From a virus: a DNA stretch of 54,317 nt. The notes under the pieces were generated by a model. That model did not search any database and had not been told where the DNA came from. It was given only the letters and a program-made list of their open reading frames with translations. How positions within the stretch are numbered: position 1 is the first letter of the stretch; each line of letters begins with the position of its first letter. This document shows positions 4,410-29,076 of the stretch, one piece after another. The DNA lies in the IMG/VR virus record IMGVR_UViG_3300045391_001808, positions 1-54,317 of that record. One strand, 5' to 3'. The translations under genes were made by a program, and so were the position numbers.

Positions 4410-5096
4410 ATGATACAAGGAACCGTTCGTATAGAACTGAAGGACCTCGAGAAGTTCGGCGCGGCTGTCGACGAGGCGCTTGCTAACCCCAACTCTTCGA
4501 GTCCGGTGCGCTCGGCCCTCAAGCAGTGGGCTGCACGCTATCGTGGGTTTGCACGAGACCGGTTCGACAGGTACAGTAAGGGTGGTGGCGACTGGCCAGC
4601 ACTGGCGATCTCGACCGCCCGACGCAGGAAGGACATCGCGAAGCGACGAGCTCGCATACAAAAGTTGCAGCGGGCACTGTCGAAGTTGAAGAAGTCAGGA
4701 GCCTCGGCGTCAAGGTTGAAGAAGGCGAGGGCCTCGCTGGAGAAGGCGACGAGAGTCGCCAACACCAGGCGGTCCTCCGCAGCAAGAGACAAGGGAAGGC
4801 TGGTGAACGCAGGCGGGGTGGTGTCGATATTGCGGGACACCGGCACACTGTTCAACGCGTTGGACCCGCAGTTCACGGGCAAGCCGGGCGCCTTGGAGCA
4901 CCACATGCCGTTCGGAGTAGAGGTAGGATACGGTGGGCCGGGTAGGTATCCCGACGGCGCGACTGTTGCCGACATCGCGTCGTTCCACCAAGAAGGTGGT
5001 GGCAGGCTGCCGAAGCGAGAGATCGTAGTCGCGCCGCCCGAGACTGTGATGGTCGCGATGGCCGCAGACATGGAACGCGCGCTAGGAAAGATGTAA
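4410..5096 (+). CDS. virion morphogenesis / head-tail joining protein (Mu G or HK97 gp10-like, tentative)
   Basis: ATG 4410 lies just after the terminator (the ORF opens at GTG 4365 inside the hairpin). The segment ILRDTGTLFNAL...FGVEVGYGG...ADIASFHQEGGG resembles virion-morphogenesis family proteins. Confidence 0.6.
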   Translation: MIQGTVRIELKDLEKFGAAVDEALANPNSSSPVRSALKQWAARYRGFARDRFDRYSKGGGDWPALAISTARRRKDIAKRRARIQKLQRALSKLKKSGASASRLKKARASLEKATRVANTRRSSAARDKGRLVNAGGVVSILRDTGTLFNALDPQFTGKPGALEHHMPFGVEVGYGGPGRYPDGATVADIASFHQEGGGRLPKREIVVAPPETVMVAMAADMERALGKM

Positions 5097-5611
5097 TGAA
5101 CCCATTCGACCTGGTATACGACGCACTCTGGCAGATGGTACTTGACAGTACCCCGATGTCCGAGCTCGTCAAGCCAGGCAACATCATCAGGTACGACCAG
5201 ACGTCCAGAGACCCTTACAAGAAGGAAGTAGCGACCGAGGATTTGCCAGAACTGGTGCTGACGTCAGAAGGTGCCGACGACATCAACATGCACGCGACGT
5301 CTTGCACGTCGATGTTGCGCAGGACGTACGCCTTCATGATCAGCACTGGGGACTTCCGCCTGCAGAAGATACTGCACCCCGTAGAGTGGGCGCTCTTCTG
5401 CAGCATGTCGGACTTCCGATCGCGCCTGGGATCGCTCCAGTGGGAGGGCGAGAACTTCGTCAAGGAAGCAAACTTCGTCAGCGTGCTCAACGGTACGTCT
5501 GACCCAGACAAGAATCGCGGTATAAGAGGCTGGTCGGCAGTATGGCGTTGTCGCGTGGCGATGCACTTCCGGACAGCCAGCCTTAGAGCATACACAGCAG
5601 GAGGGTCGTGA
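5096..5611 (+). CDS. head-tail joining / tail completion protein (DUF3168-like, tentative)
   Basis: 171 aa with a TAATG overlap with the upstream gene. The N-terminus MNPFDLVYDALWQMVLDSTPMSELV and its position before the tail tube gene support the call. Confidence 0.55.
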   Translation: MNPFDLVYDALWQMVLDSTPMSELVKPGNIIRYDQTSRDPYKKEVATEDLPELVLTSEGADDINMHATSCTSMLRRTYAFMISTGDFRLQKILHPVEWALFCSMSDFRSRLGSLQWEGENFVKEANFVSVLNGTSDPDKNRGIRGWSAVWRCRVAMHFRTASLRAYTAGGS

Positions 5612-6477
5612 TGTCAGTAAGATCCGGTGTCTACGCAGCAGTGAACGGCATTGCCACCCTTCGCAACTGGGTGCTGAGTCGCACGTCGTCTACCAAACCG
5701 TACGTGGCCAGCAACACGCTGGGCGGCACGGGCCGCCGACGTGGCGTGATCGACTGGAGCGGGTCGCTGTCGCAGTACGGTGGCATTCCAGACGCCATGC
5801 CGGGCGAGACGTTCGCGTTCGCGGGCTACACGTCACCAGGTACTGGCGTCCTCGGGGACGACGGTACGGTCTACGCAGGCAACGCGATCGTCGACTCTGT
5901 TGCTGTCAACTGGAACTGGGAGACGGGCGACCCGATCAACATCTCGACTAACTTCGGTGGCAACGGCCCGCTCACCTCGTCGCAGACTGACGCGGTCGTG
6001 GACGAGACGTTCCCGGCAGTGCCCACGCCACTGGAGCTGCCGTTCCAGATACTGGACCTCGACGGCGGCTCGGGCGGGTGGTCGGAGATATGCGACGTGA
6101 CGTCGGCCACGCTGAACATCACGGCCGCGAACAAGACGTACGCCAACTCCTGCACCGACGGGATCATGATGCGGAAGCCTGGCCCGATCGACTGGACGCT
6201 CAGTGTGACGTTCCAGAACGACGACTTCATGAACGGCTTCCCGTTCGACATCAACGACGTGGTCGGCTTCCGCCTGCCCGTCGACGAAACGAACTACTGG
6301 GAGCTGCTATGGGGCATCGTCCAGGGGTATTCTAACTTTACTGTCGACCGCGAGACGGGCAACATCATCGCTGTCACGGTCAACTTCGAGATGTGTGGGT
6401 TCGATCACGACACAGAGAGCGTCGGGCGTATCGTACTGCCAGGCGCCGCTGAACCATGGTGGGGTGAGGCTGCATGA
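5611..6477 (+). CDS. putative major tail (tube) protein
   Basis: 288 aa. AGGAGGG lies 5 nt upstream of ATG 5611. The gene sits immediately before the chaperone pair and tape measure. The call is by synteny only. Confidence 0.6.
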   Translation: MSVRSGVYAAVNGIATLRNWVLSRTSSTKPYVASNTLGGTGRRRGVIDWSGSLSQYGGIPDAMPGETFAFAGYTSPGTGVLGDDGTVYAGNAIVDSVAVNWNWETGDPINISTNFGGNGPLTSSQTDAVVDETFPAVPTPLELPFQILDLDGGSGGWSEICDVTSATLNITAANKTYANSCTDGIMMRKPGPIDWTLSVTFQNDDFMNGFPFDINDVVGFRLPVDETNYWELLWGIVQGYSNFTVDRETGNIIAVTVNFEMCGFDHDTESVGRIVLPGAAEPWWGEAA

Positions 6478-6947: not shown

Positions 6948-7105
6948 TATACCGACTGCTGGCCGAGAAGTATCACTACACCCCGTCACAGATCGCAGAG
7001 ATGCCTCCCGTCGTGCAGGTCATGCTACTCGACGAGAGCGTTGACGGCAAGCGTATGACGTTCACCACGCGAGAAGAATACGAAGCCTGGATGAGGGACC
7101 GATGA
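6474..7105 (+). CDS. tail assembly chaperone, -1 frameshift product (gpGT-like)
   Basis: The -1 frame (ORF 6395..7105) is open across the end of 6474..6947. It encodes a non-junk tail (VIYRLLAEKYHYTPSQIAEMPPVVQVMLLDES...) and ends in ATGA with the tape measure start. The candidate slip site is G GGG AAG at 6899-6905. Confidence 0.5.
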
Positions 7106-8745
7106 ACTTTGCGACGATCTTCCTTCGTGGCGACAACAAGCAGCTCAAGGAAGCGCTCAACGAGTCGGAGAAGGTCGTTGCCCAGTTCGGCGAGAAGGTG
7201 GGCGGCACGCTCAAGACACTCTTCGCAGTGTACGTCGCGAGCCGTGTGCAGGGCTTCATGAAGGACGCCTTTCACGCATTCTCCGAGGAGGACCTCGGCA
7301 TCGCCAAGCTGCAGCAGTCGATCAAGAACTCTGGCGAGCCGTTCGACGTCCTCAACGACAAGATCGAGAAGCTTGCAGTCAGCATACAGCGGCTCACACG
7401 CTTCGGCGACGACCAGACTCGTGAAGCTGCGCGCATGGCAATCAACATGGGCGTGACCAGTGACAAGATCGAGGAGCAGGTCAAACTTGCTGCCGACCTA
7501 GCAGAACATCTCGGCACCACGCTGCCAGGCGCCATGCAGATGCTGACGCGCATGGCGGCATACCCACAGATGGCCTTCCGCATGCTGCGGCAGACCGGCA
7601 TCGAGTTCACGCAAGCCGAGCAGGCACAAATCAAGGAGCTCATAAAGACCGGGCAGACGATGGAGGCTACTGCCCTCATCACAGAGAAGCTCAAGCAGAA
7701 GGTCGGAGGTCTGGCCGAGGAGATCGGGAACCGCGCTGCGGGCAAGATCGCCAAGATGTCCAACGAGCTCGGTGACTTCAAGGAGAACCTCGGTAAGATG
7801 CTCGCACAACTGAACGAGAGGACTGGAGCGAGCGAGAAGCTGCTGGGCATCGCGAAACTTGGCAACGAGCTTGCCGGTGGCGGTTCTTCTGCGAACACCC
7901 TGTCGACGCCCACTCCTGACCCAGAGACGATAGGAGAGTCAGAGAGGGCACTGCGAAAGTTGAACGCAGAGATCGGCACGATGCGTTCCGAGATGCGGGC
8001 GCTCGTGTCTACAATGCCTACTGCTGCAGAGATGCTACTGCCGTGGAACACAGTGACCGGCTTCATGACCGGCGGGCGGGTGCAGGAACTGAAGGAGCAG
8101 GTCGACAAGCTAGTGGCACAGCGCGACCGACTGGCCGCGGAGTTCGCAGAGACAGACCTCGAGCGCGACATCGTGACGCCGTGGACCACGATGAGCGAGA
8201 ACCTGCGAGACAATCTCGCCGACCTCGGTGCCCAGATGCAGTCCGCGTTCAAGACGATCCCAGACCTGGCAGCAAAGACGAGCGGCGACTTCTCGATGGC
8301 AGTCTCTCGCAAGTCGAAGGAGCAGTTCAAGAAGGACCTCGAGGCGTTCCTGGGCGGCGTCAAGACTGCACGGATGACGTTCGACGAGGAGAGCGCGAAG
8401 CTGGAGAAGTTCAAGGACAAGCTGACGGACGACCAGTACCGCCTGCAGCGTGCTAAGATACAGAAGGACTTCGAGGAGGCGAAAAAGTCGGAAGACGAGC
8501 TGCTCAAGCGCTCGCCGATCAAGAAGGGCTTCACCTCTGCGATCGAGGACATCATGTCCGCGAACAATCGCATCGCTGCAGCTGCCGCGTCGATGCCTGA
8601 TACTGTGGACCGCCAGGTCGAGGCCATCAAGAAGGTAGAGAAGGCCATCGCTCCCGTCTCCAGCATAAGTGACAACACCCGGATGACCAAGGAGGGCATC
8701 GACAAGATCGTCGAGAGCCTGCCACTAGTCGGAGTACTAGCCTGA
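7102..8745 (+). CDS. tape measure protein
   Basis: 547 aa, highly helical and A/E/K/L/Q rich. It sits in the canonical position after the G/GT pair. Confidence 0.8.
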   Translation: MNFATIFLRGDNKQLKEALNESEKVVAQFGEKVGGTLKTLFAVYVASRVQGFMKDAFHAFSEEDLGIAKLQQSIKNSGEPFDVLNDKIEKLAVSIQRLTRFGDDQTREAARMAINMGVTSDKIEEQVKLAADLAEHLGTTLPGAMQMLTRMAAYPQMAFRMLRQTGIEFTQAEQAQIKELIKTGQTMEATALITEKLKQKVGGLAEEIGNRAAGKIAKMSNELGDFKENLGKMLAQLNERTGASEKLLGIAKLGNELAGGGSSANTLSTPTPDPETIGESERALRKLNAEIGTMRSEMRALVSTMPTAAEMLLPWNTVTGFMTGGRVQELKEQVDKLVAQRDRLAAEFAETDLERDIVTPWTTMSENLRDNLADLGAQMQSAFKTIPDLAAKTSGDFSMAVSRKSKEQFKKDLEAFLGGVKTARMTFDEESAKLEKFKDKLTDDQYRLQRAKIQKDFEEAKKSEDELLKRSPIKKGFTSAIEDIMSANNRIAAAAASMPDTVDRQVEAIKKVEKAIAPVSSISDNTRMTKEGIDKIVESLPLVGVLA

Positions 8746-9584: not shown

Positions 9585-10387
9585 TGAACATTACTGACCT
9601 TGTAGAGAAAGTTGGAAAGCGCGACCCTCTGTCCGCAGAGGAGTGGAATACTGTCGTGCGGTTCCTCAAGGCAGGCCAGCACACGAGCAGCCTGTCGCCT
9701 GCGTCAGCCGCCCAGGAGGATGCTGCACAGAGGACTGCCGAGCACTACGTGGTGGCAGTCACCGACGACGATCTCGAACCGTACTCTGCGTTCGGCGTAG
9801 TCGACGGCGAGTCAGGCGTGGGACCGACACAGTTCAAGGTAGCGAGGATCAACACGGCACCGGGCGCTCTCGTCTACACGAACTACTCAAACGCCGCAGT
9901 CGCGGGTGGCAAGGTGATGTGTCGCCCGGTAGGGACCTACTCGCCGGCCAGACTGCGAGTCACTGGGGACCCTGTGAGAGTGGGCTACCCGTGTGGTGTC
10001 AAGCCGGGCACTTACGGCATAGGCGACGGGTACTACGGCATGGTCTGCCTCGCGACCGGTAGTGATTATACTGGCGACTACGCCATGGTCATGCGTGCCT
10101 ACGAGCACACGTCGATGTTGGGCGTGGTGACGACAGCTCTTACCGCAGCAGACTACGACAGTCTCGTTCTTGGCATAGGAATGGTCAAGCTGCTCGTTGC
10201 AGACGAGAGCGGGTCGCTATCTGACATGCTGTCGCCCGAGAGCGGGTCAGATGGAAACATGAGCCTGCCGTGTTTCAACTCTGCAGAACGAGATGTCGTG
10301 GTCGACGAGCCCGTAGGTCTTACGATCGTACTTGGCGTCGGCCTGGTGGCATCGCCGTTGCGCTGTCCAGACGGGAGTGGCAGCTGA
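9584..10387 (+). CDS. minor tail protein
   Basis: 267 aa, translationally coupled on both sides. Confidence 0.6.
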   Translation: MNITDLVEKVGKRDPLSAEEWNTVVRFLKAGQHTSSLSPASAAQEDAAQRTAEHYVVAVTDDDLEPYSAFGVVDGESGVGPTQFKVARINTAPGALVYTNYSNAAVAGGKVMCRPVGTYSPARLRVTGDPVRVGYPCGVKPGTYGIGDGYYGMVCLATGSDYTGDYAMVMRAYEHTSMLGVVTTALTAADYDSLVLGIGMVKLLVADESGSLSDMLSPESGSDGNMSLPCFNSAERDVVVDEPVGLTIVLGVGLVASPLRCPDGSGS

Positions 10388-12396
10388 TGGGATTCCTACT
10401 GCAGTGCGACGGGACTAACAACCCGCGGTGTGAGTGTAACGGCGGAGGCGGTACGCCCTGCCTCATCTACGAAAACGCCACCCCGGAAATCCCCATCCAA
10501 TCCGGAGTTGGCGGCGTCCCCTCAAACACCATCATCAGCATCAGGGTGTTTACGACCGTCACTTTGGCCGACGACGAAACGGCCCGGATTAAGCTGTCGA
10601 TCGTTGACGACGACAACTACTGGTATGCCGAAGTCAAAGCCGGCCCGTCTGGCTATCTGAAGCTATTTAGCCGCATTGGTGGCGTTGAGACCGAGAGAAC
10701 AAACAGCGACGGGGTTTGCACCATCGCACGCGATGCCGGGACGTTTGGCTTTTGCGCGTCTCTTGGAATCAATGCCTCGATTGGAATGTTCACGATTTTG
10801 GCGTCGGTCACAGGTAGCGGTGCGGGCTATACGACCGAGTTTATTCAATCTGAAGCCGCGTTTACCAGTGGAGAATGGGGTGTTGAGTCTGATGGCACGG
10901 TTGCTGATTTATCGGTGCAACGCTATCTGAATAAGTGCCCGAAGTGCAGTAGCAATCGGACATTCTGCGACCGACTAAACATGATACCGCCCGACATGAA
11001 TGCGAGCGGGGCAGGGCCTTGCATCTATCCCGGCGAGGAACAGTATTCCGATTACCCTCTGATTGTTGATTTTGGCGGCGGCGGATGGACTTCGGTAGGT
11101 ACTGGAATTTCGCTATGCGAAGTCGTTGCTGGCGAAATCAAGCTAGTGACCGGCGCTATTTTCGGGATGATTTGCGGCCTTCCGTCAGCCTGCATTCTCG
11201 GATGGAATGGCGACGACAACCCGCTTTTTCCGAGAGCCTGCCTTGGCGGCCGATACTGCACGGTCATCAACGGCGACCAAAGGCAGGAGGTACTGGATAT
11301 CGAACTTACAATATCCGGCCCGAACTGCCCTTACGATCATCCGTGGGCGCTGCTCGGAATAAGGCTAAGCAACTTCGGTCACCCGGATTTGCCTTGGGTC
11401 GACGTGCATTACGAAGTTCACCTAGACCAGTGCCAGAGATGGGATTTAACGTTAGGTGCTGTGATCACGCTGACGAAAACCCACGAATCGCACAATCCAG
11501 TCAACCGGGCGTGCGACGGCGAATTGCCAGACACAATCACGTTTCGCCTATCTGATACCACAGACCCGCAGACCGAAAGCTGCCTTCCCGGCGACCCAAC
11601 GCTACCGCCAGACACCACGGTCCGGTGTGCTGAAATTCGACGATGCGGCTGCGACACAATCGACTTTATCTACCTGCTGGTAGCAGACGGCTACGTTGTC
11701 GGCGACATCATCAAAATAAGCACAACAACACCGGATACGCCGGCCGGTGCTATCAATCGCCCGCATATCGAGTGCTGGGAGATTATGAAAATCTCTGACT
11801 CGAATCACCGATGCATCTTCGATGGTGTTGACGAGAACCCGCTAGCCACTGTTCCGCGATGGGTGAACATCATCAGCGAACACGCCACCTGCGAAGAATG
11901 CCTGCCCTACTGCAACTGCTGCTCATCCGCCGGCACCGACACGACGATTGACGGTGTTGTGGTTTCCGTCGGCGATGCGACCGGCATTGACGCCGATTAT
12001 CAATACGAGTGGGACCACTACGTGAAGGGCAACACGTTCGTTCCGAACAACCACGAAGGCACGTTTGTTCCCCCGGGTTGTTCGTACGGAAACTATATCC
12101 AGAACGTGGCCGAAGATCCCGGCCGCACCATAGAGTTTTTATTCAACGTCACCAACAGCAATCCGAGCGACCCCGATGCGGCGTGTAGCTGGGAAGTGAC
12201 GATTCAGGCATCCGGCGGAGCGCGGTCAAACTGGGTGCTGACTTGGGTTGCATTCTCTCCGCCGGCCAAATCGGAAGTCTGTGGAGAGATGCCGATAACG
12301 ATGAACTTCGTGAGCGGGTCCGACGCCGTTCATTCCGACTTTCCGACGACGCTAAGCCTGTCGCCTCTTGCCGCTTGCCCAACCCCCGAAGTATGA
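10387..12396 (+). CDS. large cysteine-rich tail-end protein (function unknown)
   Basis: ATG 10387 overlaps the upstream TGA (the ORF opens earlier at 10270 with an Arg-rich junk extension). It is 669 aa with many Cys (CDGTNNPRCECNGGGGTPC...). Codon usage is visibly more A/T-ending than in the neighbours. Confidence 0.65.
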   Translation: MGFLLQCDGTNNPRCECNGGGGTPCLIYENATPEIPIQSGVGGVPSNTIISIRVFTTVTLADDETARIKLSIVDDDNYWYAEVKAGPSGYLKLFSRIGGVETERTNSDGVCTIARDAGTFGFCASLGINASIGMFTILASVTGSGAGYTTEFIQSEAAFTSGEWGVESDGTVADLSVQRYLNKCPKCSSNRTFCDRLNMIPPDMNASGAGPCIYPGEEQYSDYPLIVDFGGGGWTSVGTGISLCEVVAGEIKLVTGAIFGMICGLPSACILGWNGDDNPLFPRACLGGRYCTVINGDQRQEVLDIELTISGPNCPYDHPWALLGIRLSNFGHPDLPWVDVHYEVHLDQCQRWDLTLGAVITLTKTHESHNPVNRACDGELPDTITFRLSDTTDPQTESCLPGDPTLPPDTTVRCAEIRRCGCDTIDFIYLLVADGYVVGDIIKISTTTPDTPAGAINRPHIECWEIMKISDSNHRCIFDGVDENPLATVPRWVNIISEHATCEECLPYCNCCSSAGTDTTIDGVVVSVGDATGIDADYQYEWDHYVKGNTFVPNNHEGTFVPPGCSYGNYIQNVAEDPGRTIEFLFNVTNSNPSDPDAACSWEVTIQASGGARSNWVLTWVAFSPPAKSEVCGEMPITMNFVSGSDAVHSDFPTTLSLSPLAACPTPEV

Positions 12397-12905
12397 GCGA
12401 TTGTCAATTCTTCCACGAAGGCCGCTGCACTCACAAGCTATCGCGCCCAGCGATGATGCCGGTGAATAAGGCGACTTGCGACGCGTGCAAGATCAAGGGC
12501 GAGGTGTGCGAGCCGTACAAGCCAGCGGAGCATAGATACTTGCCGGTGGTTCAGCGGCCTTATGTGGCCGTGCTGGACGGCGTTGGGACTACACTAACAA
12601 AGCTGTTTGAACAGTTCGGCATTAGCAAGGAAGAGTCAATACCAAAGGGCTGTGGCGGCACCTGCGACCAGTGGATCCAACTGATGAATAGCTGGGGGCC
12701 TGAAGGATGTCGCCAGCGCCGTAAGATGATCGTCAAACGTCTCGATGAAATGAAATCGGCGATGACCTGGAAAGCGAAACTAAAGGCGGTGGCAGCAGCA
12801 TTGACGAGCAGTTTCAAACCCAACCCTCTAGACATCTCCGGGAGCTTCTTAGATGAAGCCATCAGAATACAGACGGTACGTGATAACTCTAGCCCGCAGG
12901 CCTGA
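12393..12905 (+). CDS. Cys-rich hypothetical protein
   Basis: ATGA overlap at 12393. The product is 170 aa (MSDCQFFHEGRCTHKL...CDACKIKGEVCEPYKP...CGGTCDQW). Confidence 0.55.
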   Translation: MSDCQFFHEGRCTHKLSRPAMMPVNKATCDACKIKGEVCEPYKPAEHRYLPVVQRPYVAVLDGVGTTLTKLFEQFGISKEESIPKGCGGTCDQWIQLMNSWGPEGCRQRRKMIVKRLDEMKSAMTWKAKLKAVAAALTSSFKPNPLDISGSFLDEAIRIQTVRDNSSPQA

Positions 12906-14160
12906 CCGCCTCGAGCAGTTCGCGGCGTGCTGCCCACTGTCCGACGTCTCGCCAGTATACGGTGTGGACTCGACAGCGTGCCAGCCGCCCAGGTGGTGGC
13001 GTGGGCCGCTCGGTGCGTGGGGCTGTTACCGCTCGCACGTCAACATCATCGAACACTGCCTCAACGCCGAGATCGAGCAGGTGACGATCTTCGAGGACGA
13101 CGCGGTGCCGTGCGAGGACTTCCAGTCACGGTACGACGCGTTCATGTCAGAGCTGCCACACGACTGGGGTATCGCGTACCTGGGCGGCGAGCTGCTGTAC
13201 GCTAGGAAGCAGCTGCCAGCACGTGTGACACAGAACGTGTACCGGCCCTTTAACGTGAACCGCACGCACGCGTACATGGTGCACAGGCGGGCGATGCTGC
13301 GCGTGTACAAGCACCTGTGCGACTTCCCGTGGGACCGCAAGCACCACGTCGACCACTGGCTCGGCAAGCTGCACGAGCAGTCCGACGACGTGTACTGTCC
13401 GGCACGATGGCTGTTCTCACAGCGAGGTGGCGACACGAGCGACGTCGACGGCCGCGTGAAGGACATGTCGAAGTTGGTCTCCGAACCCAAGCAGCCCGAG
13501 GTGATTAGCAGAGCCAGCCGTCCTACGCGTGTCGTGAGGACGGCTGGCTCTGGTCGCCCGCCTGTGATCGTGATCGGACTTCACCGCAGCGGGTCGAGCT
13601 GTCTGGCGGGCGTTCTGGCCAGGCTCGGTGTCTACATGGGCCGCAACTTTCGCGGCTACGAGCAGGACGGTGGCCACGAGGACGGCGGTCTCGCCCACAT
13701 CCTCGAGACCTGGATGCCGTTTCCAGGGTTGGCCACGAGGGTAGCAGATGGTGTCCTGGCCGCACGATTGAGGCGCTGGTATTCCCAACACAGACTGGGA
13801 GGCGATGTGGTGGGACTCAAGTACCCGCACCTGTGTATGGTGCCGGTGCGAGAGATATGGCCCGACGCGACCATCATTCACGCGAGCAGGCCGCTCGAGG
13901 AGAGCGTCGAGTCGCTCGTGCGACGCTGTCCGAAGAAGGACCCGCTGAAGCTCGCTACTCTGCAGAACGCGCTCTGGGACGCGAAGCAGGAACTCGTGCA
14001 GGGCGCCTACACTGTCGAGTACTCGAGACTGCTCGCAGATTCCGTGACGGAGACTTCCCGACTCTGCGAGTACCTGAAGCTCGACGGCAGGCTGGTCGAT
14101 GAGGCTGCAGCCTACGTTTTACAGCGAGATTTGCCTGTTGACACGACGGCCTCTATATAG
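12853..14160 (+). CDS. glycosyltransferase family 25 domain fused to a sulfotransferase-like domain
   Basis: The N-terminus (YVITLARRPDRLEQF...GAWGCYRSHVNIIEHC...VTIFEDDAVPCEDF) follows the GT25 pattern. The C-terminus has P-loop-like PPVIVIGLHRSGSSCLAGVL and a later IIHASRPLEESVESL, resembling the PAPS 5'-PSB/3'-PB motifs. Confidence 0.7.
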   Translation: MKPSEYRRYVITLARRPDRLEQFAACCPLSDVSPVYGVDSTACQPPRWWRGPLGAWGCYRSHVNIIEHCLNAEIEQVTIFEDDAVPCEDFQSRYDAFMSELPHDWGIAYLGGELLYARKQLPARVTQNVYRPFNVNRTHAYMVHRRAMLRVYKHLCDFPWDRKHHVDHWLGKLHEQSDDVYCPARWLFSQRGGDTSDVDGRVKDMSKLVSEPKQPEVISRASRPTRVVRTAGSGRPPVIVIGLHRSGSSCLAGVLARLGVYMGRNFRGYEQDGGHEDGGLAHILETWMPFPGLATRVADGVLAARLRRWYSQHRLGGDVVGLKYPHLCMVPVREIWPDATIIHASRPLEESVESLVRRCPKKDPLKLATLQNALWDAKQELVQGAYTVEYSRLLADSVTETSRLCEYLKLDGRLVDEAAAYVLQRDLPVDTTASI

Positions 14161-14166
14161 TATATT
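14138..14166 (+). promoter_or_regulatory. sigma70-type promoter
   Basis: TTGACA (14138-14143), 17-nt spacer, TATATT (14161-14166). It overlaps the stop codon of the upstream gene. Confidence 0.7.
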
Positions 14167-14182: not shown

Positions 14183-14200
14183 TACTACATACTACTGGAG
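14183..14200 (+). promoter_or_regulatory. conserved early leader/RBS cassette, copy 1
   Basis: TACTACATACTACTGGAG, 6 nt upstream of ATG 14207. Confidence 0.6.
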
Positions 14201-14206: not shown

Positions 14207-14422
14207 ATGGAATATCTAACATGTGAAAATTGCTCGAATCACGCCACTTACATCGCCTACGATGTCAACGACCCGTACAACGTCGTCGAGCACGCACTCT
14301 GTCCCGTTCACAGTCGTAACACACCGATGGGCTGGGTTGATGCCGACGTCCTGTTCAGCTTCCAACTCACAAACTTAAAGTTGCAGCCTGTGACACGCAT
14401 CATCAAGAAAATTTCAAAATAG
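14207..14422 (+). CDS. small early protein, Cys/His zinc-ribbon-like
   Basis: 71 aa (MEYLTCENCSNHATY...ALCPVHSRN). It is preceded by a promoter and the leader cassette. The ORF opens upstream at 14099, but that part overlaps the promoter. Confidence 0.55.
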   Translation: MEYLTCENCSNHATYIAYDVNDPYNVVEHALCPVHSRNTPMGWVDADVLFSFQLTNLKLQPVTRIIKKISK

Positions 14423-14425
14423 CTA

Positions 14426-14454
14426 TTGACACGAGGATCGTTCTTTGGTATAAT
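14426..14454 (+). promoter_or_regulatory. consensus sigma70 promoter with extended -10
   Basis: TTGACA (14426-14431), 17-nt spacer, TGgTATAAT (-10 hexamer at 14449-14454). Confidence 0.8.
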
Positions 14455-14470: not shown

Positions 14471-14486
14471 ACTACATACTACGGAG
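14471..14486 (+). promoter_or_regulatory. conserved early leader/RBS cassette, copy 2
   Basis: ACTACATACTACGGAG, 8 nt upstream of ATG 14495. Confidence 0.6.
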
Positions 14487-21260: not shown

Positions 21261-21863
21261 ATGAGAGAAGTACTGATGGTAGCAGAGTTCCACGAGAAGC
21301 TCGGCATCTCTCCCAGACAGCGGATGAGGTACAAGCCGTCGCAGATGCTGCTACAGTTCTCGCACGCGATCCACACAATGGCGCACGAGCTGGAACGCCG
21401 CGTGAATGACCCGGACGCGCGCTACCTTCGCGCCCACCTCGACCTAGAGGAGACGGCAGAGTTCGTCCACGCACTCGCGTGCGGGGACGAAGTCGCGGCA
21501 CTGGACGCGATGGCTGACAAGCTGTACATACTGTGCGGCCACGCCGACGTGTTCGACTTGCCGCTGGGCGCTGCGTTCGACGAGGTCCACCGGAGCAACA
21601 TGACGAAGAAGAAGCAGCCCGCAGACCCGAGTGCTGCTCGCGTGCGGCAGAAGGGGCCCAACTACTCGCCACCCGACCTGCGACGAGTACTACAGGAGCA
21701 TCGAGACGGCAGCCGCTGCAGCTGCGACTGGGACAAGATCCGACAGCTGGTACAGCTCATGCAGCACAGCCCGGAGATGAAGGAAGACATGCTGCACTAC
21801 GTAGACGCAGCACTCAAGCACGGAAAGACTCGTATGGAGACTCTAGGATGTACGACGCAGTAG
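21261..21863 (+). CDS. MazG-like all-alpha nucleoside triphosphate pyrophosphohydrolase
   Basis: LDLEETAEFVHAL...ALDAMADKLYILCGHA...AFDEVHRSNMTK matches the MazG-like NTP-PPase pattern. Confidence 0.7.
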   Translation: MREVLMVAEFHEKLGISPRQRMRYKPSQMLLQFSHAIHTMAHELERRVNDPDARYLRAHLDLEETAEFVHALACGDEVAALDAMADKLYILCGHADVFDLPLGAAFDEVHRSNMTKKKQPADPSAARVRQKGPNYSPPDLRRVLQEHRDGSRCSCDWDKIRQLVQLMQHSPEMKEDMLHYVDAALKHGKTRMETLGCTTQ

Positions 21864-23074
21864 GAATTCACGTATTCGCGGGCGGGTTCACAATGGGCGT
21901 TAAGAAGGTCATGAACTGTGAGACCCAGCTCGAGAAGCACGGCTTCGGTATCGAGACGGCCGAGGAAGTTGCCAAGGTGCAGGTGATCAACGGCGAGTGG
22001 CCAGACGTACCAGCGCAGATGGCGTTCGGCAACCCTCGCTGCACCGGGTTCAGCACGATCACGTCGGGCTACGACGAGACGGCACACGGGCCGTGGTCGA
22101 AGCAGACGTGTGACATACACGAGCTGTGCTCGTACGCGGCGGGCAAGTACGACATCGTGATATGGGAGTCAGTGCAGCAGGCTTACACGACCGGCAAGCC
22201 GCTGCTCGACTACCTGATCTCGGAGTACTTCGCGCCGCGAAACTACCGCGTGGCTCACGTGTTCATCAACGCCGCGTCGTTCAGCAACGCGCAGCAGAGG
22301 AAGCGATACTTCTTCGTAGCGTACCGCGACGACAGGAACTTCAACATCACGCCGCCAGTGATCGACCCGTACTATGCCACACTATATGACGCCATCTGGG
22401 AGGACAGGAACAGGGAAACTCGTGAGGTGAGGTTCTCTGCCAGCGACGAGTACGACCGAGACTGCTACATCAAGCTGACCGACAACGAGAAGGCGTGCGT
22501 GCCGTACCTGCCCACGGGCTGGGGGCTCAACACGCTTGCTCGGTTCAGGTACCAGTTCCTACCCGACAAGATGAAGTACGTCTGGGACACGAGAGTGAGC
22601 GACATGCCGTTCAGCCTGCACTGCATATCGAGGACGAACTGGCTACGGCCATGCCCGACCCTGCACTCCTCGGCCACGCGCTACATCCACCCGACGCACG
22701 ACCGACCGCTGACCGTCGGAGAGCTGGCAGCAGTCATGGGATGGGACGACATACCGCGTGGCAGGATGCCGGTGCCGCAGCTGGCCAAGGGTGTGGTGCC
22801 TGCTGTCGGCGAGTGGCTGGCACAGCAGGCAGCGGACTACCTGGACGGCAAGTGGGCCGGTGACGACTGGGAATCGTCGTACGACCCACACGACTGCGAG
22901 TGGAAGGGCAGGAGCGTGAACGGCGCCCGCGAGAAGGTCTTCGACCTGACCCGCTACGTGGGCTCACAATTCGACAGGTCGCGATACGAGGTGACGGATG
23001 ATGAACTATTCGACCATAGATACGGCCTGGGCAGAGACCATTCGAAGCCTGCTCGTCGAAGCCTCCCGACCTAG
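21848..23074 (+). CDS. DNA (cytosine-5) methyltransferase-fold protein
   Basis: Motif I IHVFAGGFTMG, motif IV FGNPRCTGFS, motif VI WESV, motif VIII QQRKRYFFVAY, motif IX RPLTVGELAAVMGW and a variant motif X KGVVPAV are present. Start ATG 21848 (the ORF opens at 21533 with Arg-rich junk). Confidence 0.75.
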   Translation: MYDAVGIHVFAGGFTMGVKKVMNCETQLEKHGFGIETAEEVAKVQVINGEWPDVPAQMAFGNPRCTGFSTITSGYDETAHGPWSKQTCDIHELCSYAAGKYDIVIWESVQQAYTTGKPLLDYLISEYFAPRNYRVAHVFINAASFSNAQQRKRYFFVAYRDDRNFNITPPVIDPYYATLYDAIWEDRNRETREVRFSASDEYDRDCYIKLTDNEKACVPYLPTGWGLNTLARFRYQFLPDKMKYVWDTRVSDMPFSLHCISRTNWLRPCPTLHSSATRYIHPTHDRPLTVGELAAVMGWDDIPRGRMPVPQLAKGVVPAVGEWLAQQAADYLDGKWAGDDWESSYDPHDCEWKGRSVNGAREKVFDLTRYVGSQFDRSRYEVTDDELFDHRYGLGRDHSKPARRSLPT

Positions 23075-23984
23075 CGAGCGTGGTGACATGCGCGAGGTCG
23101 TCGGCTACTCGTTCTCGCTGATGGGAGACAGGACGTTCCTGTGCAACGAGCGGCGGGCGTTGTCGCCGACGTATGCCGCTGCAGAGACGCTGTGGTACCT
23201 CGGGCGCGGTGGGAGCGTGGAGATGATGAAGGCCTACGCGGCCCAGTACGTGAACTACACGGAGAGCGACGGCACGGTGTATGGCGCTTACGGTGCGAGA
23301 ATAGCTAGGAACTTGTACGAGACTACAGACGGTGTGGTCGAAGACGACCTCCTTGACCTCGCCGTAGAGCAGCTGCGGCACCGGCCCGACACGAGACAGT
23401 GTGTCGTCTCGCTGTGGCGGCCCGACGACATCAGCGTGGTCGCGAAGGACCGGCCCTGCACGCTGTCGTGGCAGTTCTTAAGACGGGACGGGTACCTGCA
23501 CATGGTGGTGAACATGCGGAGCAACGACGCGTGGCTCGGGTTGCCGTACGACGTGTTCGCGTTCACGTGCGTGCAGCGCCTGGTCGCTGACACCCTGAGG
23601 CTCGACGTCGGTAAGTACGTTCACAACGTCGGCAGCATGCACCTCTACGAGAAACACGTGCCACAGGCAAGACAGGCCCTGGACTACGAGCACGCTGGAA
23701 GACAGCACCTGTGGCAGATACCCAGCCGCATGGAAGAAGTGCCGCAAGCTATTGAGGCAGAGAGCAAAGTTAGGCATACAGGATGCGAGAGAGCTCTCTT
23801 CACTGGCGACATGCTGCGAGATCTATACTACTGCTGCGCCGACAAGTGGGTGAGCGGCCTGCGACAGTACTTACAATCACCCGCGCTAAGACACATGATG
23901 GAGGTTCACGATGCTCGTAATCGAGGGCGGAGACCTAGTGGGGAAGACGACGCTGGCAAAGAAGCTGGTAGCACGACTGGCTGA
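22998..23984 (+). CDS. ThyA-family pyrimidine C5 transferase, predicted dCMP-specific (hydroxymethylase or methylase)
   Basis: The catalytic Cys is in DRPCTLSWQF (codon 23457-23459). MRSNDAWLGLPYD carries Asp (23550-23552) where thymidylate synthase has Asn (LGLPFN). GSMHLYEKH is also present. Confidence 0.7.
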   Translation: MMNYSTIDTAWAETIRSLLVEASRPSERGDMREVVGYSFSLMGDRTFLCNERRALSPTYAAAETLWYLGRGGSVEMMKAYAAQYVNYTESDGTVYGAYGARIARNLYETTDGVVEDDLLDLAVEQLRHRPDTRQCVVSLWRPDDISVVAKDRPCTLSWQFLRRDGYLHMVVNMRSNDAWLGLPYDVFAFTCVQRLVADTLRLDVGKYVHNVGSMHLYEKHVPQARQALDYEHAGRQHLWQIPSRMEEVPQAIEAESKVRHTGCERALFTGDMLRDLYYCCADKWVSGLRQYLQSPALRHMMEVHDARNRGRRPSGEDDAGKEAGSTTG

Positions 23985-24507: not shown

Positions 24508-24806
24508 AGAAGCACGACCTCAAGCCAGACCACCACCAGATGTACCGACTGGTGGAGTGCCTGGAGAAGGACGGCACGTCGCGAGCGCTGAGAGCTCGTG
24601 ACACGTTACTAGCACTGATGTCTCGGTCGTTCATGCCAGCCGCGTCGTGGTTCATCGGTCCGGGCCTTCGAGATCTAGGAGTGGAGATAGATGCTGACGT
24701 TCGACAACGGCGGAAGACTGATAACTCGCGAAGACGAGCTGCCACCCGTGCCGGAAAGAATCGAGCGGCTGTACCTCGACTTCGAGACGAGAAGCGGCGA
24801 TCCTAA
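24453..24806 (+). CDS. hypothetical protein
   Basis: 117 aa from ATG 24453 (GGAG upstream). The 3' part overlaps the polymerase start by 116 nt, so the true extent is uncertain. Confidence 0.35.
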   Translation: MAESNVTGTVLATITNCIKKHDLKPDHHQMYRLVECLEKDGTSRALRARDTLLALMSRSFMPAASWFIGPGLRDLGVEIDADVRQRRKTDNSRRRAATRAGKNRAAVPRLRDEKRRS

Positions 24807-27612
24807 GCTCGACTCGCTCCACCCGTGGCACAACTGCAGGCCGTGCGGGTTCGCGGTCACGTGGGACGACGTCCCGGGCGCGTGGTACGTCCCCGTGGAC
24901 CACGACTTCGGGCCAGTCGTGCAGCGCGAGGCGGCCTACACGTGGCTCCGTGACATAATGTCTCGGAGTCACGTGTGGGTCAACCACAACGTGAAGTACG
25001 ACGCGCACGTGTACGAGCTGAACGTCGGGAGGATCCCTCCAGGCGTTCAGCTCCGGTGCACGGTCGTGCGGGCGAAGCTGGTCGACTCGGACCGACAGTT
25101 CCGTGGTGGGTACGGCCTGGACGTGTTGAGCTCGCAGTGGCTGCACGAGGACATCAGTGCCGTGGAGCAGGCGATGGCACCTTACCTCTACCGCTGCAAG
25201 GACTACGGCGTGGTGCCGTCGGACGTCATGGGTTCGTACGGCTGCCAGGACGTGATCACAAACCGTAGGCTGGATCGTTACATCGACAACGCTATGGCAT
25301 CCCAATGTTGTGAGATAGCGCTGGTAGAGCAGTCGCTGACTCGCGTGCTGCTTGACGTGGAGCAGCGTGGCATGATGGTCGACCCCACCGAGCTCAAGAT
25401 CGCCGAGCTCAGGACGATGACCCAGATGCTGCAGCTGGAGGCAGAGCTTGAGGTTCTCGTCGGCAGGTCGTTCAGGCCGCACGTCAACGAGGACTGCTAC
25501 GACGTGCTGTGCACGCAGTACGGGCTGCCCGTCATGGGGTGGACCGACAAGACAGAAGACGGCGAGGAGGGCGGCAACCCGTCGTTCGACAAGCAGGCAC
25601 TCGCGGGCTACATGGTGCACCCACTGGCCCCGAAGGACGTCGTGAGTCGGATCGTAAAGTATCGCAAGCTGTCTACGTTCAAGTCGCTGTTCGTAGACGT
25701 GCTGTCTACCGAGCACGTGGACGGCGTGATCCACACGCAGTACAACCAGCTCGTGCGCACCGGCCGGCTCAGCTGCAAGTCACCCAACATGCAGCAGCAG
25801 GACAAGTCGAGCAAGATGCTGTTCCACCCGCGACCTGGGTACAGCTTCATGTCGTGCGACTACTGCTTACCGGCTGGCACGCTGATACCGACGCCGTACG
25901 GTGACAAGCCGATAGAGATAGTTGCCGCCAACTTGATGCCAGTACTGTCTGTGACAGACAGTGGAGAGCTTAAATTCTGCGCGACCTCGAGAGGTGGAAG
26001 AGTTGGATTCGGCCAGATATTCAAGATCACTTTCACCGACGGGACTACATTCGAGTGTACGAGCGACCATCCGATGATGAGACTGGACGGCACGAGTGTT
26101 AAGTGCAAGGACTTGGTCTCAGGAGACAGGATGGCACACGTTGTTGACACGACGATAGGGAAATATACATACTGGAAACTTAAGAGCAGCATCTACAGCA
26201 AGCACAAGCTTGTAGCTGAGTGGGCGACAGGATCTAAGATAGATAGCGACCTCTACCACGTGCACCACATCGACGAGGACAAGAATAACTGGTGCGTGAG
26301 TAACCTAGAGGTAAGAGGTTACTCTGAGCACATATCAGGCCATAGTAGGCAACGATATCTGTCGCAAGATCATGTAAAGCGAGTAGAAGCACTGCGCGAA
26401 GCTCTTAAGAATCGAAGATCATACGCATATGATGAGAACCCAAACTGGCAGGGTGGTAAGATCGTGGTTGCATGTGACACGTGCGACCGACCATTCGAGA
26501 AGTGGCCTTCGCAGGATACTAAATACTGCTCGAAAGAGTGCCGTAGCGCTGGCCGATCAGCGAGTCATCAGAAGCGAAGAGTTGAAGTTACCTGTGAGAC
26601 GTGCAGTAGGACCTTCGAGACTCTGCCCGGAAGACCTCGAGTCTTCTGCTCGAGAGCTTGCTCTAACCGATCACCTGTAAAGACTGCAAAAGACGATAAG
26701 AACTATGAGGTGCTAAGCGTCGAGTACGCTCGCGACGACTGGTACTACAGCATAACTGTTCCTGAGACTGGTACTTACGTCACTACGAACGGGCTCATAA
26801 ATTCACAGAGTCAGATCGAGTTCCGGTTCATAGTCCACTATATCGACGAGCCACACGCCGTGGAGGCTTACAACCGCGACCCAGATACAGACTTTCACAC
26901 GTGGGTCGCCGAGCTCTGCAAGATCAAGAGGAAGCCGGCCAAGACTGTCAACTTCATGGTGGCCTTCGGCGGCGGCAAGAAGAAGACGATCAAGACGCTG
27001 TCGAAGAACGACGACGTGATCGGCGACATCACGCAGCAAGTCGAGAAGCTAATCGCAGAGGGCAGGGTGGACCGCGCCGACGCGAAGCTGGTGTTCGACC
27101 AGCTCTGCGAACGGAAGGCCGTTGACATGTATGAGACCTACCACGCCACGCTGCCCAACCTCAAGCGCACGTCCCGACGCGCCGCGTCAGTCTGCGAGCG
27201 GCGGGGCTACGTCTACACAATCATGGGCCGGCACCGGCACATCCCGAGGGACAAGGCGCACATAGCGTTCAACACGATCAACCAGGGCAGTGCTGCTGAC
27301 CTGATGAAGGAGCGCACCGTGGCGCTGGCCGAAGCGATCCGTGGCAGGGACATCCACATCGTCGCGAGCGTGCACGACGAGGTGCTGCTCGAGATGCCAA
27401 CTGCTGTCGCACACGATCCTCGGACGGCTCGTGACCTCGCGAACCTGATGGAGCACCCGCCGTTCGAGCTGCGAGTGCCCATCAGGTGCAGCATAGGAGT
27501 GAGCGACCACACGTGGGCGCAGGCCGGCAGCGACGACGTCAGCGGCCCTGTGTCCTACGATCCCAGCGAGTGCGGGCTGTTCGATCACGTTCCTAACACG
27601 TCGACACACTGA
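24691..27612 (+). CDS. family A DNA polymerase (3'-5' exo + pol) interrupted by an intein
   Basis: Exo I is LYLDFET. Motif A is split as SCDY / SQIEFR. Motif B is KPAKTVNFMVAFGG and motif C is VASVHDEVLLE. Confidence 0.9.
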   Translation: MLTFDNGGRLITREDELPPVPERIERLYLDFETRSGDPKLDSLHPWHNCRPCGFAVTWDDVPGAWYVPVDHDFGPVVQREAAYTWLRDIMSRSHVWVNHNVKYDAHVYELNVGRIPPGVQLRCTVVRAKLVDSDRQFRGGYGLDVLSSQWLHEDISAVEQAMAPYLYRCKDYGVVPSDVMGSYGCQDVITNRRLDRYIDNAMASQCCEIALVEQSLTRVLLDVEQRGMMVDPTELKIAELRTMTQMLQLEAELEVLVGRSFRPHVNEDCYDVLCTQYGLPVMGWTDKTEDGEEGGNPSFDKQALAGYMVHPLAPKDVVSRIVKYRKLSTFKSLFVDVLSTEHVDGVIHTQYNQLVRTGRLSCKSPNMQQQDKSSKMLFHPRPGYSFMSCDYCLPAGTLIPTPYGDKPIEIVAANLMPVLSVTDSGELKFCATSRGGRVGFGQIFKITFTDGTTFECTSDHPMMRLDGTSVKCKDLVSGDRMAHVVDTTIGKYTYWKLKSSIYSKHKLVAEWATGSKIDSDLYHVHHIDEDKNNWCVSNLEVRGYSEHISGHSRQRYLSQDHVKRVEALREALKNRRSYAYDENPNWQGGKIVVACDTCDRPFEKWPSQDTKYCSKECRSAGRSASHQKRRVEVTCETCSRTFETLPGRPRVFCSRACSNRSPVKTAKDDKNYEVLSVEYARDDWYYSITVPETGTYVTTNGLINSQSQIEFRFIVHYIDEPHAVEAYNRDPDTDFHTWVAELCKIKRKPAKTVNFMVAFGGGKKKTIKTLSKNDDVIGDITQQVEKLIAEGRVDRADAKLVFDQLCERKAVDMYETYHATLPNLKRTSRRAASVCERRGYVYTIMGRHRHIPRDKAHIAFNTINQGSAADLMKERTVALAEAIRGRDIHIVASVHDEVLLEMPTAVAHDPRTARDLANLMEHPPFELRVPIRCSIGVSDHTWAQAGSDDVSGPVSYDPSECGLFDHVPNTSTH
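25864..26802 (+). mobile_element. intein with HNH homing-endonuclease domain, inserted in PolA motif A
   Basis: Block A is CLPAGTLIPTPYG (Cys1 at 25864), block B is ECTSDHPMM, HNH is HVHHIDEDKNNWCVSNLEVRGYSEHISGH, and there are two CxxC...CSxxC repeats. Block F/G is WYYSITVPETGTYVTTNGLIN followed by Ser (Asn codon 26800-26802). The segment is visibly lower in GC. The 3' boundary is ambiguous by 6 nt (SQ|SQ). Confidence 0.8.
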
Positions 27613-27935: not shown

Positions 27936-27953
27936 TACTACATACTACTGGAG
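27936..27953 (+). promoter_or_regulatory. conserved early leader/RBS cassette, copy 3
   Basis: TACTACATACTACTGGAG, identical to copy 1, 8 nt upstream of ATG 27962. Confidence 0.6.
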
Positions 27954-28779: not shown

Positions 28780-28794
28780 GGGATCGGGGCGCAT

Positions 28795-28808
28795 TACATA
28801 CTACGGAG
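28795..28808 (+). promoter_or_regulatory. conserved early leader/RBS cassette, copy 4
   Basis: TACATACTACGGAG, 6 nt upstream of ATG 28815. Confidence 0.55.
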
Positions 28809-29056: not shown

Positions 29057-29076
29057 ACATACTACATACTACGGAG
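29057..29076 (+). promoter_or_regulatory. conserved early leader/RBS cassette, copy 5
   Basis: ACATACTACATACTACGGAG, 6 nt upstream of ATG 29083. Confidence 0.6.

Follow-up and report, generated by a model that had tools for sequence, protein, structure and literature searches.

GtrABC-type seroconversion cassettes are accessory glycan-modifying genes of phages that often lie by a tail fibre or tailspike gene, near the end of the prophage; they need a flippase and a bactoprenol-linked transferase, both membrane proteins, with expression from the prophage. For the locus studied here, the nearest precedent in function is the virion glycosylation of the mycobacteriophages Che8 and Rita, which, in the partial accounts given by PMC11256854 and PMC12582341 (after Freeman et al. 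2023), carry glycans on capsid proteins and encode glycosyltransferases that decorate the phages' own structural proteins, as either proposed or shown. Genes of the Sulfotransfer_3 family have been noted in phage genomes, and their function "remains unclear" (PMC10580990). Here we analyse a gene that joins a glycosyltransferase and a sulfotransferase in one polypeptide. It lies at 12853..14160 (+ strand) of a 54,317-nucleotide viral sequence, positions 1 to 54,317 of IMG/VR record IMGVR_UViG_3300045391_001808 (the whole stretch is called the window below), starts with an ATG and encodes 435 amino acids (aa), both start and stop having been checked in the sequence. As judged by sequence comparison and structure modelling, the product is very probably an intact bifunctional enzyme, composed of a glycosyltransferase family 25 (GT25) half and a sulfotransferase half of the type using 3′-phosphoadenosine 5′-phosphosulfate (PAPS). 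Since both domains come from known families, the enzyme chemistry itself is not of a new kind; what is new is the fusion, its abundance in the tail operons of the phages of one bacterial phylum, its coupling to a protein family without recognisable relatives, and the prospect that phage biology includes sulfated glycans. In a literature search, we came across no account of a GT25 domain fused to a sulfotransferase, whether in phages or in other organisms.

An earlier note on this DNA, made from the sequence alone, had proposed such a fusion on the basis of four motifs. The open reading frame (ORF) and the motifs are present exactly as it described them: RRPDRLEQF at aa 15–23, GCYRSHVNI at 57–65, IFEDDA at 79–84 and IGLHRSGSS at 241–249. 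Both domains score above the curated Pfam cut-offs, with Glyco_transf_25 (PF01755) matching aa 54–140 at 38.7 bits (cut-off 24, E 1.2e-9) and Sulfotransfer_3 (PF13469) matching aa 237–411 at 34.4 bits (cut-off 27, E 3.5e-8), the latter over profile positions 1–213 of 216, that is, near its full length. Matches to PHROGs covered the N-terminal part only, all of them to phage 'glucosyltransferase' families, and a scan of the protein against NCBIfam gave no match. An AlphaFold2 model built on 120 relatives (mean predicted local distance difference test score, pLDDT, of 88.6) consists of two compact domains: the GT25 domain with its GT-A fold (aa 1–192, 12853..13428) and the sulfotransferase domain (aa 236–428, 13558..14136), both on the + strand like the disordered linker of about 40 residues between them (approximately aa 193–235, 13429..13557). 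The pLDDT exceeds 90 over aa 10–190 and falls below 50 for aa 193–201 and 209–232; the linker is weakly conserved and rich in gaps in the family alignment.

Comparison of the modelled domains with the PDB using Foldseek placed both in the enzyme classes that had been proposed. Matches of the N-terminal domain were to human COLGALT1, a collagen hydroxylysine galactosyltransferase (E 3e-10), to R655 of Mimivirus (1.5e-9) and to a bacterial GT25 β-1,4-galactosyltransferase (2e-7), the top structures (9evk, 9crz, 8xkd) all being GT25 enzymes. For the C-terminal domain, the check set beforehand was whether it models as a P-loop fold other than that of a sulfotransferase; Foldseek returned true sulfotransferases throughout, each with a probability of 1.00, namely tyrosylprotein sulfotransferase 2 (TPST2; 3ap3, E 1.7e-5), the olefin synthase sulfotransferase (4gox, 2.7e-5), Stf1 of M. 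tuberculosis (2zq5, 9e-5) and tick TPST (8w5z). At the sequence level, a family profile of the GT25 half matched PDB sequences of COLGALT1 (4e-14), R655 (1e-8) and the bacterial GT25 β-1,4-galactosyltransferase (9e-4). A single-sequence search of the PDB with the C-terminal domain gave no match and a domain profile was required for alignment; this profile is nearer Stf1 and the polyketide sulfotransferases (3e-5) than TPST (0.015–0.04).

Conservation across the 120 relatives, which share 33–48% identity, picks out the residues expected of two active sites. In the GT25 half, E81, D83, G111, G112, R137-T138-H139, G171 and Q190 are invariant; the DxD motif is E81-D82-D83 (13093–13101), in which D82 is 98% conserved, and it aligns with the EDD of COLGALT1. 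In the sulfotransferase half, the invariant residues are G242, H244, G247, S249, G259, E276, K323, P325 and R346. The P-loop that the earlier note had likened to a PAPS-binding loop is borne out by four of these (G242, H244, G247 and S249) and constitutes the 5′-phosphosulfate loop G242-L-H-R-S-G-S-S249 (13576–13599). Its second suggestion, a segment resembling the 3′-phosphate-binding motif, corresponds to R346...S354 (13888–13914; S354 is 99% conserved), for which the domain profile shows a counterpart in the R...S motifs of three enzymes, Stf1, the olefin synthase sulfotransferase and TPST1. The same three align with K323-Y-P325 (13819–13827) through their K-x-P and with 'YeeLlaDP' through their C-terminal signature. 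Invariant H244 and E276 (codon 13678–13680) are candidate catalytic base residues, and to judge by these alignments both halves look catalytically intact.

The comparison with described enzymes shows where each half departs from its relatives. COLGALT1/GLT25D1 (PDB 9evj, 9evk, 8zgc) and Mimivirus R655, a putative viral collagen galactosyltransferase formerly mis-annotated as a lipopolysaccharide (LPS) enzyme (PMC9546862), have in common with the N-terminal half the 'GxxGCxxSH' helix, a DxD motif reading EDD and the GT-A fold, at a sequence identity of only about 20%. The acceptor of COLGALT1 is a protein; unlike these proteins, the enzyme studied here comes from a virus of bacteria, is cytoplasmic and continues into a sulfotransferase domain, with no lysyl hydroxylase found and no collagen-like acceptor in the window. 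Collagen-like acceptors were in fact rejected as a general target, as Gly-X-Y runs of at least six occur in only 7 of 159 loci. The bacterial GT25 β-1,4-galactosyltransferases of lipooligosaccharide (LOS) and LPS synthesis (PDB 8xc8, 8xkd, 8xlz; LgtB/Lic2A type) belong to the same CAZy and Pfam family and have the same fold; they are soluble and use uridine diphosphate (UDP)-sugars, and in prophages our enzyme resembles LOS loci in being accompanied by GT8-like and GT2 genes. It differs from them in its weaker profile match (9e-4), its place in a phage late operon, its attached sulfotransferase and its Cys-rich partner protein. Stf1 (2zq5), the CurM and olefin synthase sulfotransferases (4gbm, 4gox) and TPST1/2 have the fold of the C-terminal half and its aligned GxxxSGSS, K-x-P, R...S and YxxLxxDP elements, but none is fused to a glycosyltransferase, the best E-value to this Sulfotransfer_3 group is 3e-5, and the loop here reads GLH(S/R)SGSS, with an invariant His and, in most members, Ser for the usual Arg/Lys.

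Among whole systems, the glycosyltransferase genes of Che8 and Rita are found close to the genome's 3′ end rather than in the tail operon (PMC11256854), their hosts are Actinobacteria, and the accounts cited, as excerpted, report no sulfation. Unlike the Gtr systems, the cassette studied here encodes only soluble proteins and its genes overlap late genes. Bacterial operons of hydroxylase and sulfotransferase genes, with PAPS supply genes, have been predicted to sulfate tail-collar-like or collagen-like substrates (Iyer et al. 2010, PMC2938197); one non-phage homologue of our enzyme resembles them in standing beside a TauD-type dioxygenase and further sulfotransferases, whereas those operons sulfate a hydroxylated amino acid, lack GT25 and are cellular rather than part of a phage late operon (PMC2938197). 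An animal Golgi enzyme with a deacetylase as its first domain likewise couples glycan processing to PAPS-dependent sulfation in one polypeptide, but that first domain is no glycosyltransferase, and we claim no homology to it other than in the general sulfotransferase fold.

The earlier note had stated that it knew of no single phage polypeptide of this kind; while none is described in the literature that we searched, the gene is no one-off, but belongs to a large family of Planctomycetota phages and prophages. A word-indexed search found at least 260 relatives, most covering more than 90% of the query and many with both Pfam domains, and searching exhaustively with a profile brought up 1,270 clusters at E ≤ 1e-30 (representatives at 50% identity), of which the best 150 nearly all span both domains. 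Both catalytic centres appear, from these alignments, to be under strong purifying selection across the 1,270 clusters. Relatives are encoded on 278 IMG/VR viral contigs and gave 158 matches in species-representative genomes, almost all of Planctomycetota (Pirellulales, Planctomycetales, Gemmatales and Phycisphaerae). Source databases name them 'glycosyltransferase family 25 protein', 'sulfotransferase' or 'hypothetical protein'. In deposited phage genomes, a near-identity DNA search found no match and a protein-level search found only three huge uncultured phages, which match the GT25 part alone. Some genomes hold several copies: Aporhodopirellula rubra and Novipirellula rosea have five or more loci apiece, and similar prophage-like elements with a cassette each, four to five or more per genome, are seen for example at loci L122, L124, L128 and L138 of the former and L131, L152, L159 and L162 of the latter. 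This prophage load is notable, and the cultured strains offer a ready experimental resource. Carriers in culture are A. rubra CECT 8075, N. rosea JCM 17759, Stieleria marina K23_9 and Rubripirellula obstinata CECT 8602. Two BFVD models, A0A516KWN1 (610 aa) and Hyperionvirus A0A3G5AAN9 (837 aa), aligned over 333 and 432 columns, which exceeds one domain, so that other viruses, a giant virus among them, may have a two-domain enzyme of this sort too.

The window is the genome of a virulent-type siphovirus of a Planctomycetota host. Its structural and packaging genes include those for the large terminase, a Mu-like portal, a Mu F-like protein, the major capsid protein and the tape measure (7102–8745); the tape measure gene is followed by two more tail-module genes and then by a large Cys-rich tail gene. 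Genes for replication and nucleotide metabolism comprise an SNF2 helicase, a primase-helicase, a C5 methylase, ThyA-like and ThyX proteins, a family A DNA polymerase and a ligase. A Pfam scan of the larger window ORFs found no integrase, PAPS-supply gene, nucleotide-sugar gene or second glycosyltransferase. The large tail gene (10387..12396, + strand, ATG at 10387 within a longest ORF from GTG 10270) directly adjoins the cassette upstream; its 669-aa product has 33 Cys (4.9%) and no Pfam match, and is probably a tail fibre or receptor-binding protein.

From the large tail gene to the enzyme, the genes are packed without gaps. The ATG of the partner gene (12393) overlaps the TGA of the tail gene (end 12396) as ATGA, and the end of the partner gene (12905) overlaps the ATG of the enzyme gene by 53 nucleotides (nt). 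Similar packing is found in relatives: the spacing between the tail gene and the partner gene is −4 nt in 45 and −1 nt in 20 of 88 of them, and the median spacing is −8 nt from partner to enzyme and −1 nt from enzyme to the next gene. These overlaps of starts and stops place the enzyme in the late tail operon, and we saw no promoter-like or terminator-like site on the + strand upstream of it. Directly 3′ of it are two sigma-70-type promoters on the + strand, at 14138..14166 (TTGACA-17-TATATT, 11/12, the −35 hexamer lying inside the last codons of the fusion gene) and 14426..14454 (TTGACA-17-TATAAT with an upstream TG, a perfect 12/12 consensus). The late structural unit thus ends with the enzyme gene and early-type units begin right after it, in agreement with the earlier note, which had placed the gene last in the tail operon and ahead of early promoters. 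Its further description of that position as moron-like holds in part: as shown below, the gene is accessory cargo at a module junction, but it lacks a promoter and terminator of its own, its start overlaps the gene upstream, and its third-position GC of 0.79 is that of the core genes (0.72–0.85; the large tail gene has 0.63).

The gene immediately upstream of the enzyme, which the earlier note had missed, encodes a Cys-rich partner of 170 aa from an uncharacterised family (12393..12905, + strand; the ORF 12243–12905 read from ATG 12393). While a single-sequence homology search with the window partner returned only the protein itself, an iterated profile and the family alignment recovered it (E 3e-11 in the second round and 5.8e-25 in the fourth), and it aligns with one subgroup of the family. 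The conserved core reads GxGxxL...C.C...MN.WG..GCR...I..WL.E. By the iterated profile, the partner was found in 97 of 143 loci, lying directly upstream of the enzyme in 90 and fused to it in-frame in 4. A partner domain also forms the N-terminus of 17 of the 120 database proteins of the enzyme family, accounting for their unannotated N-terminal extensions. The family, of at least 125 members that all bear the name 'hypothetical protein', has no match in Pfam, NCBIfam or PDB sequences; the model has a helical bundle as its conserved core (aa 60–166) and a Cys-rich N-terminus modelled without confidence, and a fold search gave no match (best E 2.8).

The linkage between partner and enzyme is not strictly two-way, as two divergent partner homologues were found in temperate phages without the enzyme. 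There the homologue stands at the end of the tail module, followed by a metallophosphoesterase-like gene (357–389 aa; 4971–6044 of locus L248 and 4824–5993 of L250; motifs DVH, GGD, GNHG, HGH and GHWH) and, further on, an integrase gene. This makes the partner a conserved terminal tail-module gene, behind which the enzyme usually docks or with which it fuses. The partner protein, in turn, probably docks or targets the enzyme. In one syntenic phage without the fusion enzyme, a 403-aa protein (L186, 2892–4103) combines a partner domain (aa 14–148) with GT25-like motifs (IFQDD, PSLVQHIG) and lacks a sulfotransferase domain; possibly a simpler version of the enzyme-partner system, it is offered only as a lead.

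To compare gene neighbourhoods, genes were called in 159 loci with flanks of ±10 kb and their products clustered. Where 7 kb or more of the 5′ flank was available, phage structural genes precede the enzyme at 40 of 48 loci from genomes and 58 of 67 from viral contigs, and at least 83% of such loci adjoin phage tail genes. The commonest arrangement, type A (80 loci), has the order head-tail joining, neck, tail tube, tape measure, a conserved 264-aa protein, a protein of about 800 aa, partner and fusion enzyme. The protein of about 800 aa occupies the position of the large tail gene of the window and is conserved over its N-terminal 40% and hypervariable over the remainder, the usual signature of a receptor-binding fibre. 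The partner gene of type A loci is on the + strand and has a Cys-rich product of about 190 aa; what had seemed a constant gap of some 550 nt 5′ of the enzyme is really this gene, hidden by shadow ORFs on the opposite strand.

Genes that often follow the enzyme in type A loci encode a GT8-like protein, GT2 glycosyltransferases (one or two) and a radical SAM protein. The first of these (cluster c6, e.g. L139 17723–18757) has the GT8-type motifs LQLDNDMLI, HPNGGLYLY and YHFxGxxK; it had been considered as a TET/JBP dioxygenase, to which we found no match. The radical SAM protein (c7, e.g. L149 14489–15307) matched only in the generic N-terminal core, at a viperin-like 40 bits against a cut-off of 180. 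No membrane-spanning segment, flippase, polymerase or Gtr-type membrane component was predicted among the enzyme, the partner and the recurrent neighbours. Small proteins of about 149 aa encoded downstream of the enzyme in prophages (c17, e.g. L094 11344–11790) have a GS...D.D pattern reminiscent of nucleotidyltransferases.

The enzyme gene occurs in several unrelated phage backbones. One chromosomal copy without phage neighbours lies beside an RHS protein and a transposase, another in a cluster of TauD-type dioxygenase, enzyme, GT1, Sulfotransfer_2 and Sulfotransfer_3 genes, and a third, in Rubinisphaera, beside a polymorphic toxin/immunity-like array. This array (L245, 657–5291, and the same in L246, L247 and L088) encodes a 1012-aa GT2-domain protein, three tandem DUF7957 proteins (121 aa) and a 98-aa ORF. 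The tandem DUF7957 genes were considered as substrates and rejected: the 98-aa ORF is about 90% identical to the last 88 residues of the 1012-aa protein, and this duplication of a C-terminus is the layout of a polymorphic toxin with orphan tips and immunity genes.

Within the lineage of the window, the enzyme is accessory. Sampling this lineage more widely by the flanking SNF2 helicase gave 80 loci, of which only 2 have the enzyme; about ten equally close syntenic relatives without it keep c31, c32, the tape measure, c34, the variable tail gene, the helicase, c47–c49 and the primase. Only the window also has the partner within its backbone type, which suggests that enzyme and partner arrived together.

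What the enzyme modifies is a matter of graded probability. The earlier note had named virion proteins, host envelope glycans and DNA as possible targets; we keep these three as the right short list and rank them in that order. Our reading, which we put forward tentatively as a real possibility short of an even chance, is late cytoplasmic glycosylation and sulfation of a virion protein, most likely the tail fibre. The enzyme would be made late in infection, in the cytoplasm, alongside the virion parts, and would take UDP-hexose and PAPS from the host, as the scanned ORFs hold no supply genes for either. It would transfer a hexose to a phage structural protein, after which the sugar or a nearby hydroxyl would be sulfated; addition and then sulfation of the same sugar is plausible. 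The most probable acceptor would be the tail fibre or receptor-binding protein encoded directly upstream, to which the enzyme might be brought by the partner through docking or targeting, and progeny particles would carry a small, negatively charged sulfated glycan. The larger prophage versions, with their extra GT8-like, GT2 and radical SAM genes, may build a longer glycan.

Three observations favour a virion protein as the acceptor: the GT25 half is nearer COLGALT1 and R655 than the bacterial GT25 β-1,4-galactosyltransferase, which points to a protein; the enzyme is fused in some members to the partner, a terminal tail-module gene product; and each of several prophages in one genome keeps its own copy, which fits a per-phage need better than receptor masking. 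The same reading is favoured by the packing of the gene into the late operon, also in a phage that shows no sign of lysogeny, by the phage structural genes upstream in most loci and the occurrence in several unrelated backbones, and by the mycobacteriophage precedent of glycosylated capsids. For the window phage itself, the absence of an integrase among its larger ORFs, together with its own replication genes and sigma factor, makes a role in lysogenic conversion unlikely. Several points weigh against modification of a virion protein. We infer the donor sugar, the order of the reactions, the acceptor, the role of the partner and the benefit to the phage, the evidence for the acceptor being indirect. 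The occurrence of the partner without the enzyme means that their adjacency may partly reflect a shared insertion site. One element has the enzyme between portal and capsid genes; as a recurrent pattern, such placement in the head module was rejected, this being the only case. Residue 245, the basic position before SGSS, is Arg in the window and Ser in most relatives, the preceding His being invariant, so the catalytic details depart from those of textbook sulfotransferases. Prophage cassettes combine GT25, GT8-like and GT2 enzymes, and the same mix makes up LOS/LPS outer-core loci, whose enzymes work on the cytoplasmic face and have no membrane-spanning segments. These cassettes also sit at the end of the element beside the tail fibre gene, where seroconversion genes are found. 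Finally, the fusion enzyme is the only glycosyltransferase among the window ORFs scanned, in a phage whose DNA may, from the sequence of its ThyA-like protein, contain a hydroxymethylated pyrimidine.

The last three of these points bear on the two other targets. An enzyme acting on the host envelope would, with the GT8-like and GT2 proteins of prophages, extend and sulfate, from the cytoplasmic side, the LPS core or some other glycan of the cell surface, masking a receptor so that superinfecting phages are excluded or progeny are kept off cell debris. We find this doubtful, though several points speak for it: GT25 in bacteria is best known for galactosyl and glucosyl transfer in the LOS/LPS outer core, as the Pfam family name reflects, all cassette members are soluble like LOS core enzymes, and the non-phage homologue clustered with a TauD dioxygenase, GT1 and two more sulfotransferases lies in a glycan-type setting. 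However, the overlap with late tail genes leaves no room for a promoter active in the lysogen, the gene is present in a virulent-type phage in which no integrase was found, the cassette has no flippase, polymerase or Gtr-type membrane component, and genomes with at least five similar prophages, each with a copy, are hard to square with the exclusion of similar phages; the GT25 half is, moreover, nearer protein-acceptor enzymes than the bacterial β-1,4-galactosyltransferase. Hypermodification of DNA, in which a hydroxymethyl-pyrimidine would be glycosylated and then sulfated against host restriction, appears highly unlikely. The ThyA-like protein does match the CMP 5-hydroxymethylase MilA over nearly its full length (9e-26), no less well than thymidylate synthase, there is a separate ThyX and an adjacent C5 methylase, the PHROGs families hit by the N-terminal domain are labelled 'glucosyltransferase', and the prophage GT2 neighbour weakly matches a TET-associated glycosyltransferase family (29.1 bits, cut-off 27.5). 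Yet most family members lie in the tail modules of temperate prophages and not in nucleotide-metabolism modules, the window gene is within the late structural unit upstream of the early-type promoters, and no TET/JBP-type dioxygenase or DNA kinase was seen beside the enzyme, c6 looking GT8-like. To our knowledge sulfated DNA has never been reported, and we know of no GT25 enzyme that acts on DNA.

Two further explanations were considered. The halves could carry out independent modifications, the GT25 half O-glycosylating a protein and the other half sulfating a side chain such as tyrosine, on the same or a different target. The inclusion of TPST1/2 among the best fold matches of the C-terminal domain, the protein hydroxylysine galactosyltransferase as the best match of the N-terminal one, and a long disordered linker that lets the halves act separately would all suit this, but we judge it improbable: the C-terminal profile is nearer Stf1 and the polyketide enzymes than TPST, no Tyr-rich acidic acceptor motif was identified, the rarity of collagen-like sequences leaves few acceptors of the COLGALT1 kind, and the fused order is strictly kept across hundreds of clusters, for which coupled steps are the simplest explanation. 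Lastly, the gene could be auxiliary metabolic or selfish cargo that alters host metabolism or an exopolymer (e.g. a sulfated exopolysaccharide), or merely hitch-hikes, with no role in the particle. Its accessory status in the lineage of the window, the mobile or genomic-island settings of some chromosomal copies beside RHS or polymorphic-toxin-like genes, and the unclear role reported for phage sulfotransferases in general (PMC10580990) are compatible with this. Strong purifying selection on both catalytic centres, a tightly conserved placement behind the tail fibre and partner genes, and the lack of export or polymerisation partners make it quite improbable.

Sulfation has no established role in phages, and the family provides a concrete, abundant and testable case of it in the tail operons of the phages of one phylum; we know of no bacterial virus for which a sulfated sugar on a virion protein has been shown. 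If a virion protein is the target, particle glycosylation, so far a matter of mycobacteriophages, would extend to a new phylum and a new chemistry, with a bearing on host recognition in Planctomycetota, which are known for handling sulfated polysaccharides. A more specific form of the same reading, to which we give only a slim chance, is that the fibre carries a sulfated sugar mimicking the algal sulfated polysaccharides that the hosts bind and eat, so that the virion is caught by the harvesting apparatus, with the partner serving as a targeting subunit of a new kind; the fibre would then provide the first example among bacterial viruses of a sulfated glycoprotein, and with it a novel way of adsorbing to the host. 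Were host LPS or DNA the target instead, the enzyme would represent a novel form of receptor masking or of DNA hypermodification. Whichever applies, the partner adds a protein family without a detectable relative in Pfam, PDB sequences or by fold, and counts of PF13469 in Planctomycetota genomes that are taken as a capacity for sulfated exopolymers (e.g. PMC9723792) may partly count this prophage gene.

The analysis of the window also bears on the regulation of its early genes. Near-perfect TTGACA-N17-TATAAT sites number only four in the 54 kb, all on the + strand, with 0.02 expected by chance. A 12-nt element, ACTACATACTAC, is present on the + strand in six copies (14184–14195, 14471–14482, 27937–27948, 28793–28804, 29061–29072 and 30035–30046) against 0.07 expected by chance; three copies lie about 18–20 nt 3′ of the consensus promoters at 14138, 14426 and 29019 and are followed by GGAG and an ATG. 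The copy behind the 14138–14166 promoter (14184–14195) leads into a small ORF (14207–14422), and that behind the 14426–14454 promoter (14471–14482) into the SNF2 helicase gene, whose true start is probably ATG 14495. ACTACATACTAC looks like a shared leader or regulatory element of the early transcription units. A perfect TTGACA-17-TATAAT promoter at 37435–37463, in a low-GC stretch (0.51 at 37–38 kb), lies upstream of the gene for a phage-encoded sigma factor (38156–38740, Sigma70_r4_2), which suggests a switch from early transcription by the host RNA polymerase to late transcription with the phage sigma factor.

Two large proteins of the window without a family match, encoded at 10387–12396 and 50255–53656, have a third-position GC of 0.63–0.64, markedly below the rest of the genome, and are possibly exchangeable host-recognition proteins. 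The ThyA-like gene is at 22998–23984, the ThyX gene at 35517–36383 and the C5 cytosine methylase gene, which adjoins the ThyA-like one, at 21533–23074. Finally, the family A DNA polymerase gene (24691–27612, 973 aa) is split by an intein that carries an HNH endonuclease, the Intein_splicing and HNH_3 matches falling within aa 441–704.

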